Source of the DNA: Escherichia coli | GTDB taxonomy: Bacteria; Pseudomonadota; Gammaproteobacteria; Enterobacterales; Enterobacteriaceae | Assembly: GCF_041248615.1 (NCBI RefSeq) | Contig: NZ_CP158426.1 | DNA length: 64,000 bases | Strand: one strand, 5' to 3' | Part shown: positions 22,425 to 26,769 of the stretch, piece after piece | Numbering within the stretch: the first letter of the stretch is position 1 | Layout: each line of letters starts with the position of its first letter | The notes under the pieces: model-generated | The model's database searches: none | Told to the model about the DNA's origin: nothing | What the model saw: the letters and a program-made list of their open reading frames with translations, nothing else | Made by a program: the position numbers and the translations under genes

Positions 22425-23204
22425 TCAGAAGTGACCGTCCAGGCGGTCACCGAACTCGATAATAAAGCGGCTCATTGCCATTCGCCAGTCCTTCAACGGC
22501 ATCGTCCATTTCTGGGACGCAGACTGGATTGCCAGCCACACCACTTTTTTCACCGAGTCGTCTGTCGGGAACACTTTACGCTTTTTGATCGCATGGCGGA
22601 TCACGCTGTTTAGCGACTCGATGGCATTCGTCGTATAGATCACTTTGCGGATGTCCGTTGGATAAGCGAAGAACGTGGCAAGATTCGGCCAGTTAGCCTG
22701 CCAGCTTCGGCTTATCTGAGGATAGCGACTGTCCCAGGCCGCAGCGAACGCTTCCAGTGCCTGCTGACCTGCCTCTTCCGTGGGAGCTTGATAAATCGCT
22801 TTCAGGTCGCGAGTGACGGCCTTGTAGTCCTTCCATGACACGAAGCGCAGGCTGTTGCGCACCATATGCACGATGCATAACTGGATGCGGGCCTTCGGAT
22901 ATACTGTGTTGATGGCATCCGGGAAGCCTTTCAGGCCATCCACACAGGCGATGAGGATATCGTTCAGACCGCGGTTTTTCAGTTCAGTCAGCACATTGAG
23001 CCAGAACTTCGCCCCTTCATTTTCGGCCAGCCACATACCCAGCAGTTCCTTCTGACCTTCGATATTGATGCCCAGTGCCAGGAACACCGATTTGTTGATG
23101 ACGCGACTGTCCTGCCGAACTTTCAGGACGATACAGTCAAGATAAACAATGGGGTAAACAGCATCCAGTGGTCTGTTTTGCCATTCTACAACCTGCTCCA
23201 TCAC
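22425..23204 (-). pseudogene. IS256-family transposase, N-terminally truncated (about 140 aa missing) by insertion of the IS629-like element
   Basis: 259-aa ORF matching the C-terminal two thirds of IS256-family transposases; upstream end abuts the IS629-like inverted repeat at about 23218. Confidence 0.7.
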
Positions 23205-23271
23205 GGCATCGGTGACCTGAGCCGCCCCGGGAATCCTGGAGACTAAACTCCCTGAGAAAGAGGTAAACAGA

Positions 23272-23598
23272 ATGACTAAAAATACTCGTTTTTCCCCCGA
23301 AGTCCGTCAGAGGGCGATTCGTATGGTTCTGGAAAGTCAGGGCGAATATGACTCACAGTGGGCGGCAATTTGTTCCATTGCCCCAAAGATTGGCTGTACA
23401 CCGGAGACTCTGCGTGTCTGGGTGCGCCAGCATGAGCGGGATACCGGAGGCGGTGATGGCGGGCTCACCACCGCTGAACGTCAGCGTCTGAAAGAGCTGG
23501 AACGTGAAAATCGTGAACTGCGCCGCAGTAACGATATCCTTCGCCAGGCTTCCGCTTATTTTGCGAAGGTGGAGTTCGACCGCCTCTGGAAAAAGTGA
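23272..23598 (+). CDS. IS629-like OrfA (HTH transposase subunit)
   Basis: 108 aa [21 protein letters not shown]...; leucine-zipper region; overlaps orfB in the -1 frame. Confidence 0.8.
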
Positions 23599-24012
23599 TG
23601 CCACTGCTGGATAAGCTGCGTAAGCTGTACGGGGTCGGACCGGTATGCAGTGAACTACATATTGCCCCGTCAACGTATTACCACTGTCAGCAACAGCGAC
23701 ATCATCCTGATAAACGCAGTGCCCGTGCGCAGCGCGATGACTGGCTGAAGAAAGAGATACTGCGCGTATACGATGGGAATCATCAGGTATACGGTGTGCG
23801 TAAAGTCTGGCGTCAGTTGTTACGGGAAGGAATCAGGGTAGCCAGATGTACAGTGGCGCGCCTCATGGCGGTTATGGGACTTGCCGGTGTTCTCCGGGGT
23901 AAAAAGGTCCGCACTACCGTCAGCCGGAAAGCCGTTGCCGCAGGCGACCGCGTAAACCGTCAGTTTGTGGCAGAACGTCCTGACCAGTTGTGGGTGGCTG
24001 ATTTTACTTACG
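23595..24012 (+). pseudogene. IS629-like OrfB, interrupted after ...QLWVADFTY by a group II intron
   Basis: Transposase homology ends at 24012; intron consensus GTGTG follows at 24013. Confidence 0.7.
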
Positions 24013-26282
24013 GTGTGCCCGGAGTTCAGGGCGGGCATGGATGCTTAAATGAACCGCGAGTCTGTCTGGAATATTGAACCGGTAACTCACGATGAGAAAC
24101 CCAACAATCCCACCGGGTGTGACGGTGGAGAACCTGAGCGGCAGTGACCTGCGGCATGCCCGCAGGGTGATGTAACCCGCTGACAACGGGGATTGAGGCG
24201 AGATCACTAAGCCGAGATGATCCTCAAGGTTAAGTACTGAAAGGCTGAAGAACATGAACCCGTTAATCCGCCTCTGTGGGTTGAAAACGTCACCACGGCC
24301 TACGTGATCTGACAGGCCGTGCAGGAGGAACTGGCAGTGATACGTAAGCACTGCCGGTCGAAGGTGTTTTGACATGTATGCGAAACACCGGGGCAGCAGC
24401 GTCTATCACGCTTGCATTGCTGACTTCTGCCAACTTGCGGCAAGCAAGGATAAAGAGTGCGACGGGCAGCCTCCTCAGTATGCCTGAGTCCAGGCCGGTA
24501 AACCGGGGAAGGTCAGCGACGGATGTTAAGGGGGCATGGCTCCGATGACGCGCTGGCTGGCGGAGCTTCCGTAGTAGTCCGCGATGGGGAAAGCCCATTA
24601 CATGGCGAAGGGAAGCAGTTTGAATGTGTTTGCGACGTGAATTAACTGACCTAACGAGGTGAAGACCTTTGATAATCAGCGAAATGCAACGCAAGCTTGC
24701 CACATGGGCAGCCACCGATCCGTCCCTACGGATTCAACGGCTACTGCGTCTGATAACACAACCAGAATGGCTGGCTGAAGCGGCGCGGATCACGCTTTCA
24801 TCAAAGGGGGCCCATACCCCCGGCGTTGATGGCGTGAACAAAACAATGCTACAGGCCAGACTGGCTGTTGAGCTGCAAATCCTCAGGGATGAATTACTCT
24901 CAGGCCACTACCAGCCCTTGCCCGCCAGACGGGTTTACATCCCTAAAAGCAACGGCAAACTGCGACCACTGGGTATCCCCGCGTTGCGGGATCGTATTGT
25001 TCAGCGGGCCATGCTGATGGCGATGGAGCCGATATGGGAGAGTGATTTTCATACGCTCTCATATGGCTTCCGGCCTGAGAGCAGTGTCCACCACGCGATC
25101 CGCACGGTGAAATTACAGCTCACAGACTGTGGTGAAACCCGGGGACGCTGGGTGATTGAAGGCGACCTGTCCAGTTACTTCGACACCGTACATCATCGAC
25201 TGCTGATGAAGGCTGTACGCCGCAGGATCAGTGACGCACGTTTCATGACTCTGCTGTGGAAAACCATCAAGGCGGGACATATCGATGTCGGTCTCTTTCG
25301 GGCGGCCAGTGAAGGTGTGCCACAGGGCGGTGTTATATCGCCGCTATTATCGAACATCATGCTGAATGAGTTCGATCAATACCTGCATGAGCGCTACCTG
25401 AGCGGGAAAGCCAGAAAAGATCAGTGGTACTGGAATAACAGTATCCAACGGGGCCGAAGTACGGCGGTCAGAGAAAACTGGCAGTGGAAACCCGCGGTGG
25501 CGTACTGCCGCTATGCCGATGATTTTGTCCTCATCGTCAAAGGCACCAAAGCACAGGCGGAAGCCATCAGGGAGGAGTGTCGGGGTGTGCTCGAAGGCAG
25601 TCTGAAACTCAGGCTGAACATGGATAAGACTAAAATCACCCATGTTAATGACGGCTTTATCTTTCTGGGGCACAGGATCATTCGCAAACGCAGTCGTTAT
25701 GGCGAGATGCGAGTGGTCTCAACGATCCCGCAGGAGAAAGCCAGAAACTTCGCCGCATCGCTGACAGCACTGTTATCAGGCAACTACAGTGAAAGCAAAG
25801 TCGATATGGCTGAACAACTCAACCGAAAACTGAAAGGCTGGGCCATGTTCTATCAGTTCGTTGATTTTAAGGCCAAAGTCTTCAGTTATATCGACCGTGT
25901 CGTGTTCTGGAAGCTGGCTCACTGGCTGGCCCGCAAATACCGTACAGGTATCGCTTCCCTGATGAGGTGGTGGTGTAAATCACCGAAACCGGGTCAGAGC
26001 AAAACGTGGGTTTTATTTGGTAAAACCAATCACGGCAAGCTCAGCGGCGAAATACTGTACCGGTTGGTGGGGCAAGGCAAGAAGCTGTTCCGCTGGCGGC
26101 TACCCGAAGGTAATCCCTATCTGAGGACGGAGACCAGAAACACGTATACATCGCGCTTTACAGAAGTGGCAATGGCGTTCGCCAGCATTTAAATGGAGAG
26201 CCGGATGCGCTGAAAGGTGCACGTCCGGTTCGGGGAGGAGAGGCAGGGAAATAGTCCGACTACGCCCTGCCTCTTACTCTAC
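24013..26282 (+). mobile_element. Bacterial group II intron (about 2.27 kb) with an ORF in domain IV
   Basis: 5' GTGTG start, structured 5' region of about 650 nt, RT/maturase ORF, domain V (GAGCCGGATGCGCTGAAAGGTGCACGTCCGGTTC) at 26198..26231, domain VI, 3' end ...CTAC. Confidence 0.8.
24669..26192 (+). CDS. Group II intron-encoded reverse transcriptase/maturase
   Basis: 507 aa; RT motifs including YADDFVLIV; C-terminal maturase (X) region. Confidence 0.9.
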   Translation: MIISEMQRKLATWAATDPSLRIQRLLRLITQPEWLAEAARITLSSKGAHTPGVDGVNKTMLQARLAVELQILRDELLSGHYQPLPARRVYIPKSNGKLRPLGIPALRDRIVQRAMLMAMEPIWESDFHTLSYGFRPESSVHHAIRTVKLQLTDCGETRGRWVIEGDLSSYFDTVHHRLLMKAVRRRISDARFMTLLWKTIKAGHIDVGLFRAASEGVPQGGVISPLLSNIMLNEFDQYLHERYLSGKARKDQWYWNNSIQRGRSTAVRENWQWKPAVAYCRYADDFVLIVKGTKAQAEAIREECRGVLEGSLKLRLNMDKTKITHVNDGFIFLGHRIIRKRSRYGEMRVVSTIPQEKARNFAASLTALLSGNYSESKVDMAEQLNRKLKGWAMFYQFVDFKAKVFSYIDRVVFWKLAHWLARKYRTGIASLMRWWCKSPKPGQSKTWVLFGKTNHGKLSGEILYRLVGQGKKLFRWRLPEGNPYLRTETRNTYTSRFTEVAMAFASI

Positions 26283-26769
26283 TCTGGACGGGTAAGCGCT
26301 GGGCGTACCTCGCCGTTGTTCTCGACCTGTTCGCAAGAAAACCAGTGGGCTGGGCCATGTCGTTCTCGCCGGACAGCAGGCTCACCATGAAATCGCTGGA
26401 AATGGCATGGGAAACCCGTGGTAAGCCCGGCGGGGTGATGTTCCACAGCGATCAGGGCAGTCATTATACGAGCAGGCAGTTCCGGCAGTTATTGTGGCGA
26501 TACCAGATCAGGCAGAGTATGAGCCGGCGCGGAAATTGCTGGGATAACAGCCCAATGGAACGCTTCTTCAGAAGTCTGAAGAACGAATGGGTGCCGGCGA
26601 CGGGCTATGTAAGCTTCAGCGATGCAGCTCACGCAATAACGGACTATATCGTTGGATATTACAGCGCACAAAGACCGCACGAATATAACGGTGGGTTACC
26701 GCCAAACGAATCAGAAAACCGATACTGGAAAAACTCTAACGCGGTGGCCAGTTTTTGTTGACCACTTCA
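26283..26769 (+). mobile_element. IS3-family (IS911-like) 3' part: orfB C-terminal coding region and terminal inverted repeat
   Basis: Translation [27 protein letters not shown]...DNSPMERFF (DDE transposase C-terminus); ends with GCCAGTTTTTGTTGACCACTTCA (revcomp of IS911-type repeat TGAAGTGGTCAACAAAAACTGGC). Confidence 0.6.

Follow-up and report, generated by a model that had tools for sequence, protein, structure and literature searches.

The locus described here lies at positions 22425–26769 of a 64,000-nucleotide (nt) stretch of Escherichia coli DNA (contig NZ_CP158426.1 of assembly GCF_041248615.1), referred to below as the window. It is a mosaic of insertion sequences (ISs) that carries a complete group II intron, identified by similarity as E.c.I4, and the exons on the two sides of this intron match two different IS elements. 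From left to right, the order is a carbohydrate porin gene (ending at 22188), a remnant of IS1414, the 5' half of an IS629-type element, the intron, the 3' half of an IS911-type element, a spacer containing repetitive extragenic palindromes (REP) and an L-lactate permease gene. The window is part of an E. coli chromosome, and its positions 22100–27100 are 100% identical to record NZ_LT599825 (isolate NRZ14408). The mosaic accounts for three neighbouring 'pseudogene' annotations in the window as one structure.

The IS1414 remnant (IS256 family; 22425–23217, minus strand) retains the C-terminal, approximately two thirds, part of the transposase gene, with an open reading frame (ORF) at 22425–23204 that lacks the N-terminus. 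Its N-terminal side is cut by the left end of the IS629-type element. An earlier reading made from the letters alone (the sequence-only reading) had described an IS256-family transposase gene truncated by an IS629-like element. The direct abutment of the remnant with the IS629-type left end bears this out, and the label given by the Prokaryotic Genome Annotation Pipeline (PGAP) in the identical record NZ_LT599825 agrees ('IS256-like element IS1414 family transposase, incomplete, missing N-terminus'; 22425–23222, minus). The positions which that reading had assigned to the elements also held, except that the IS629-type left end is at 23218 and not at 23216.

The IS629/IS1203-type part (IS3 family; 23218–24012, plus strand) constitutes the 5' exon of the intron, and comprises the left inverted repeat, orfA (23272–23598, plus), the frameshift region and the 5' part of orfB. 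The left inverted repeat begins at 23218 (TGAGCCGCCCCGGG... / TGAGCCGCCCCGGGAATCC...). At the orfA/orfB overlap, we found a full-length match to the ALIL pseudoknot, which directs programmed −1 frameshifting in the IS3 family (23553–23669, plus; Rfam RF01497, 111.7 bits, E = 3.6e-28). The orfB part ends at 24012 in ...GATTTTACTTACG, which encodes VADFTY plus the first base of the following codon. This whole stretch aligned without gaps to nt 1–795 of IS1203/IS629 at 95.6% identity, and it was 99.5% identical to a variant in strain SM107. Judged from its content, it is half an element and not a member copy.

The intron itself occupies 24013–26282 (plus strand). It is complete, runs for 2270 nt from GTGTG to CTAC and, being E.c.I4, is placed in bacterial class A. 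Both boundaries are the same in 11 aligned copies and fit the 5' GUGYG and 3' AY pattern. Rfam RF00029 matched domains V and VI, which extend to the 3' splice site (26196–26282, plus), over the entire model (1–77 of 77) with 64.9 bits against a gathering score of 40; no family for domains I–IV was matched over the intron in Rfam at a permissive threshold. The intron encodes a reverse transcriptase/maturase (plus strand) that is read either from the ATG at 24684 to 26192 (502 residues) or from the TTG at 24669 (507 residues). It is annotated as ltrA (WP_001189119.1), carries the YADD motif (RYADDF), and has LtrA as its closest solved relative (E = 1.7e-51). The only Pfam domains in it are RVT_1 (residues 91–337, E = 8e-34) and GIIM (residues 361–426, E = 1e-10), and the protein therefore has no endonuclease domain. 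The sequence-only reading had posited a complete group II intron interrupting orfB after VADFTY, and its GTGTG start, YADD motif, domain V and CTAC end were all confirmed.

We assigned the intron to E.c.I4 from sequence comparison. It is 99.7–99.9% identical to copies that other strains, E24377A among them, carry in IS629 and IS911, with at most 7 differences per 2270 nt from the copies in E24377A, O104:H4, O111 and other strains. The ykfC gene of K-12 matches it at 98.3%, and we take this gene to be the E.c.I4 fragment given for MG1655 in PMC3522654. Strain E24377A carries seven copies of E.c.I4, which homes into IS629, IS911, ISEc16 and ISEc31 (PMC3522654). A study of intron ORFs devoid of an endonuclease domain put it, together with S.f.I1, in ORF class A (PMC3552965).

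Two amino-acid changes in the intron protein of the window, at window positions 25080 and 25423 (intron nt 1068 and 1411), are common only to the copy in strain ACN001. One of them (R133S) replaces R by S at the Arg of GFRPxRS, a residue that is Arg in LtrA, in GsI-IIC, in a third solved group II reverse transcriptase and in nine other aligned E.c.I4 copies. The other replaces R by Q (DRWYW to DQWYW). The ORF is intact in the window, yet the protein that it encodes may be enzymatically impaired.

The IS911-type part (IS3 family; 26283–26769, plus strand) forms the 3' exon, and consists of the 3' part of orfB (stop at 26761) and the right inverted repeat. It begins at the exact base where E.c.I4 sits in IS911 copies, aligns without gaps to the last 487 bp of IS911 (nt 762–1248) at 96.7% identity, and ends in the right terminal repeat TTGACCACTTCA. 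In blastn comparisons, the left exon matched IS1203/IS629 only and the right exon IS911 only, without any cross-match, and the similarity changed from one to the other exactly at the intron boundaries. Hence, as had been suspected from the letters, the sequence after the intron is IS911-like and does not continue IS629, to which it has zero blastn similarity, and the two flanks come from different IS3-family elements; no single IS reference aligned with both. Within the 64-kb window, we found neither a second intron copy, nor the 3' sequence of IS1203 (orfB catalytic core, right inverted repeat), nor the 5' sequence of IS911 (left inverted repeat, orfA, orfB 5' part), nor the remainder of IS1414. 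A search for intact partners elsewhere in the genome had been proposed; made over this window, it returned no intact IS629 or IS911.

Next to each other, the two insertion sites read ...GATTTTACTTACG|TCAGCAC in IS629 and ...GATGTGACCTATA|TCTGGAC in IS911. In codons, these are GAT TTT ACT TAC G|TC and GAT GTG ACC TAT A|TC, respectively, so that each lies one base past the Tyr codon of D-x-T-Y. As aligned, the sites of E.c.I4 in the orfB genes of IS629 and IS911 are homologous. When the two exons of the window were joined in silico, they gave an uninterrupted, in-frame chimeric OrfB (...VADFTYVWTGKRW...). The hybrid is not bordered by a target-site duplication (ACC versus GTG in the window, TTC versus TCT in BEN5202). 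The reference copies of IS1203 and IS911 that we fetched likewise lack such duplications, as they border deletions, and a missing duplication is therefore weak evidence.

We looked for exon-binding site 1 (EBS1) by a complementarity scan together with a minimum-free-energy fold of intron nt 1–668. The candidate, CGUAAG (24343–24348, plus), is part of the 9-nt loop closing a predicted 9-bp hairpin. It pairs at 6 of 6 positions, by Watson–Crick pairs, with the end of the IS629 5' exon (CUUACG, its last 6 nt), but at just 4 of 6 with the IS911/ISEc52 site (CCUAUA in IS911), where the mismatches fall at −1 and −5. The loop (AUACGUAAG, 24340–24348) is invariant in all 11 aligned copies, which reside in IS629, IS911 and ISEc52. 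From the predicted fold and this pairing, we infer that CGUAAG is EBS1, and IS629 looks like the cognate target of E.c.I4. We also considered that IS911-resident copies might have an EBS1 adapted to CCUAUA, and rejected it as all 11 copies have the same CGUAAG loop. For EBS2, intron nt 189–194 (AGAUCA) and 275–280 (ACGUCA) are both candidates. The proposal to fold the intron and compare its exon-binding sites with the two junctions was thus rewarded in part: the candidate EBS1 matches the IS629 exon, but it does not vary with the host IS and so does not locate a crossover. IS911 is occupied by the intron in 659 genomes despite the 4/6 pairing of the candidate EBS1. A natural empty/occupied pair for E.c.I4 in IS911 is provided by a chromosomal IS911 copy flanked by a surface-adhesin E/MFS fragment and a DUF2254/BCCT transporter: strain AR_0006 lacks the intron at this copy, and three other strains have it.

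We performed a census of exon pairings in 5426 complete E. coli genomes. The queries were synthetic sequences of 2187 nt, each composed of 500 nt from the 5' exon, 600 nt from either end of the intron and 487 nt from the 3' exon, and the cut-off of 80% coverage could be reached only if both exons matched. The IS629/IS629 pairing was found in 1182 genomes and IS911/IS911 in 659. The window type, IS629/IS911, was present in up to 305 genomes (a figure that takes in borderline cases at 80% coverage), 189 of them with the exact block, and the reciprocal type, IS911/IS629, in 117, including the O104:H4 copy beside pic. At the level of genomes, which reflects clonal sampling and not independent events, about 422 chimeric occurrences stand against 1841 same-IS ones, that is, about one in five has mismatched exons. 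A 600-nt spliced-junction query found a contiguous, intron-less IS629–IS911 junction in none of the genomes; the 12 records that reached at least 80% coverage of this query all matched it as two pieces 0.5–0.75 kb apart.

The 5-kb block of the window recurs at 99.9–100% identity in 189 of the 5426 genomes, so that a chance pattern and an assembly artefact can both be dismissed. Carrier strains include NRZ14408 and APEC E19035. As the block is common to so many genomes, we concluded that the event which formed the chimera is old and has been inherited with the island, and is not local to the source genome.

Comparisons of matched loci place the exchange at the intron. The window and ACN001 align without gaps over 12000–26765 at 99.8% identity, with 0 mismatches in 20400–23965, 8 in 23966–24743 and 0 in 24744–26382, and their introns have two private single-nucleotide polymorphisms (SNPs) in common. 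From 26383 onwards, 17 of 385 positions of the IS911 exon differ, and the right flanks are unrelated. At the papI locus, strains P829 (IS629/IS629) and Eco889 (ISEc52/IS629) match at 1186 of 1187 positions on the right-hand side of the intron and have unrelated sequences on the left-hand side. In these alignments, matched loci have one half in common and the other half switched, inside the intron or at most 100 nt from it. The 8 mismatches between the window and ACN001 in 23966–24743 span the boundary of the 5' exon and the intron, and the ACN001 alleles there are those of IS1203-type copies (E24377A, O111). This difference resembles a tract of gene conversion whose donor was a further IS629::intron copy.

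The explanation that we favour, with a probability of about 0.85, is that the locus is a chimera which arose by homologous recombination between two copies of E.c.I4. Recombination between intron copies homed into different IS elements had been put forward in the sequence-only reading, and the genome comparisons support it: both parental types and the reciprocal type are present, an intron-less hybrid is absent, the breakpoints lie at the intron, and the IS911 end with its lactate module is found as a unit of its own on a plasmid. According to this scheme, one copy would have homed into orfB of an IS629/IS1203-type element, itself inside IS1414, and another into the homologous site of an IS911-type element adjoining other DNA. 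Insertion by E.c.I4 one base past the conserved D-x-T-Y catalytic-motif codons of IS3-family transposases would place one and the same 2.27-kb sequence in different IS3 members, at an identical position of the reading frame. The intron copies would then be the only long homology between IS elements that are otherwise unalignable; being at least 99.7% identical over 2270 nt, with 19 variable sites among 11 copies, they offer ample substrate for recombination. A crossover within the intron would join the left IS half and flank of one element to the right IS half and flank of the other, and the DNA between the recombining copies would be deleted, inverted or exchanged. We infer a single event or few events, which took place in a forerunner of the island and not in the source strain, presumably by a RecA-type mechanism.

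The intron should still be able to splice from this hybrid context, since the IS629 5' exon pairs perfectly with the candidate EBS1 and the 3' exon starts with TC as in both parents. The ligated exons, with the junction ...TTTACTTACG|TCTGGACGG, would encode an in-frame OrfB with an IS629 N-terminal and an IS911 C-terminal part. The hybrid element is probably immobile, as its ends come from different IS elements.

Several points weigh against recombination between intron copies as just described. The event is reconstructed from population-level comparisons and is not directly seen, the dependence on RecA is an assumption, and the two limits stated with the census counts also apply. Among the 11 copies, the 19 intron positions that vary show no grouping by host IS, and all of them lie at or before intron nt 1411; without SNPs specific to the host IS, the original IS629/IS911 crossover is not placeable inside the intron. 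The interval that must contain the crossover between the window and ACN001 (24744–26382) extends 100 nt into the IS911 exon, and this later exchange could instead have been between IS911 and IS911. The parental state was not found among the 5426 genomes, either as IS1414::IS629::intron with the IS629 3' half or as a whole IS911::intron beside the lactate module. A joined-flank query for the ancestral arrangement returned only a deletion derivative (strain SW07164) and sister arrangements, and neither an empty nor a parental site. Genomes that carry the arrangement in a single place, such as 17MR471 and 19SZHZ869Rt, contain no reciprocal product, although a window-type chimera without it fits deletion or exchange between replicons.

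The alternative named in the sequence-only reading was a single hybrid IS, with an IS629 left and an IS911 right half, that existed first and into which E.c.I4 homed later. In its favour, mosaics occur among IS3-family members and the reading frame is kept across the junction, but the census largely refutes this possibility, which we regard as highly improbable. A hybrid predating the intron finds no support where the intron-less junction occurs in 0 of 5426 genomes. In addition, the switch in similarity coincides with the intron boundaries, one left half is joined to differing right halves, and reciprocal and IS629/ISEc31 chimeras exist too, always with the intron at the junction; the lack of a target-site duplication points, if weakly, in the same direction. 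Co-conversion of flanking exons is known from group II introns of yeast mitochondria, and an intron protein without an endonuclease domain would imply unconventional priming. The chimera might thus be thought to stem from intron mobility itself, either by co-conversion of the 3' exon during retrohoming or by a template switch from an IS911::intron transcript invading IS629. Such an origin is very doubtful, since the whole 487-bp IS911 exon is present up to its terminal repeat, the adjoining flank has changed as well, and the IS629 3' half does not come after the IS911 part. An excised lariat, moreover, has no exon sequence, and the retrohoming of Ll.LtrB is independent of homologous recombination in the account of Cousineau et al. 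1998 as cited in PMC7947834.

The intron could also have been a mere passenger if the arrangement came from recombination or gene conversion between two IS911 3' regions, or from an adjacent rearrangement mediated by the IS911 end. The divergence of the window and ACN001 from 26383 on, with 100 nt of IS911 exon inside the crossover interval, and the variation among strains in the right flank of the IS911 end are in favour of it. However, the intron makes up 1539 of the 1639 nt of that interval, and this process would explain only a swap of IS911-type right halves and not the primary junction between IS629 and IS911, which are elements without similarity; we hold it to be improbable as the source of the locus. 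Lastly, a 2.3-kb repeat with copies 99.7–99.9% identical can mislead short-read assemblers into collapsing two intron copies and joining unrelated flanks. This is scarcely credible here, because the identical block with conserved flanks occurs in 189 complete genomes assembled independently, from many laboratories and hosts.

Chimeras of this kind are on record. Table S2 of PMC3522654 (Leclercq & Cordaux 2012) lists among the hosts of E.c.I4 a 'chimeric IS629/IS911' (SHI-1 island) and a 'chimeric IS629/ISEc31' (IAI39). The window copy resembles the E.c.I4/S.f.I1 copies described there in IS3 elements of Escherichia and Shigella in the intron, the target genes, the insertion site and the exons from two ISs; that study records the chimeras without going into how they arose or how frequent they are. 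The O104:H4 copy beside pic is of the SHI-1 type, and is presumably the chimeric SHI-1 copy of Table S2. It has the opposite polarity, with IS911 at the 5' and IS629 at the 3' side, whereas the window copy has IS629 at the 5' and IS911 at the 3' side. Unlike the SHI-1-type copy, the one in the window is in a different island and abuts an IS1414 remnant.

A close parallel is found in lactococcal relaxase genes, where the exons switch lineage exactly at the Ll.LtrB site, which was ascribed in 2020 to homologous recombination between intron copies and described as exon shuffling at the DNA level (PMC7947834). In both systems, near-identical introns occupy the same conserved catalytic-motif position in diverged homologous genes, the exons switch precisely at the intron, and splicing gives, here by prediction, an in-frame chimeric ORF. 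The lactococcal intron encodes a protein of 599 residues, whereas the class A intron E.c.I4 encodes one of 502 with RVT_1 and GIIM only, and the host genes are relaxases in the one case and IS3 transposases in the other. The function of the chimeric relaxases was shown, whereas the chimeric OrfB is predicted from sequence. The exchange here, unlike that in the relaxases, also re-joins different flanking genomic modules. In this respect it is like the ectopic recombination between IS elements or Wolbachia group II introns (Leclercq et al. 2011, as cited in PMC3522654 and PMC7947834), where identical repeats at scattered sites provide portable homology by which modules are exchanged and DNA is deleted or inverted. 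It differs from simple ectopic recombination of that sort in that the repeat is nested in mutually dissimilar repeats, so that its signature is a hybrid IS and not a simple deletion scar.

The window is therefore a further example of a phenomenon that has already been described, and the current understanding is unchanged. Intron–IS tandems have been argued to be especially recombinogenic and to raise genome instability (PMC3522654). The census supports this argument, as about 422 chimeric against 1841 same-IS occurrences make intron copies nested in IS elements appear to be frequent substrates of recombination in E. coli. Intron-mediated exon shuffling is also extended from relaxases (PMC7947834) to transposases. 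A bolder proposal, which we consider unlikely, is that copies of E.c.I4 act as portable homology cassettes which routinely shuffle the halves of mutually unrelated IS3 elements and the island modules attached to them, and that the spliced hybrid transposase is expressed and has an activity or a regulatory role of some kind. As every host has the intron at one and the same codon phase, an intact hybrid transposase, with the DNA-binding part of IS629 and the catalytic core of IS911, would result from splicing. If true, this would be natural exon shuffling by a group II intron among transposases.

The right flank, joined via the IS911 end and outside the mosaic (26770–34255), contains the REP-containing spacer, the L-lactate permease gene, dld, lutABC-like genes and a truncated gntP-family gene. 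A plasmid of strain 1332KP has the same IS911-end junction and lactate module without the IS629–intron half (98.06% identity over 7776 bp from window position 26453 to 34223), which suggests that the lactate module moves between plasmids and the chromosomal island. At 33842–35658, the truncated GntP-family permease gene is succeeded by a copy of ISKpn26 (IS5-like) and then by a type I restriction system. ACN001 lacks the entire segment 26770–35632 and has 0.9 kb of transposase fragments instead. Strain SW07164 has the same flanks with nearly the whole mosaic deleted (window ∼22400–26550); its order is the porin gene, ∼200 bp, a 216-bp IS911 3' fragment and the lactate permease gene.

A tyrosine recombinase (integrase) gene beside nfeF (2950–4266) and a tRNA-Met(CAU) gene (51124–51199, minus), ∼48 kb from it, are probably the limits of the genomic island that holds the mosaic. 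Within the island, the mosaic is the seam between modules, with raffinose/sucrose catabolism on its left and, on its right, lactate utilisation and then the type I restriction system. Between phage-like genes and the raffinose/sucrose catabolism module there is an IS3-family transposase gene with orfB only (11074–12060, minus), a copy that ACN001 has as well. Two adjacent short DUF2913 ORFs (19060–19263 and 19325–19636) look like a single gene split by mutation. On the other side, an Rfam match to IS102 RNA (42870–43106, 71.8 bits) is located directly upstream of an Ag43/Cah autotransporter gene (43125–45971), and CP4-like genes (yeeU/cbtA family) directly precede the tRNA-Met(CAU) gene.

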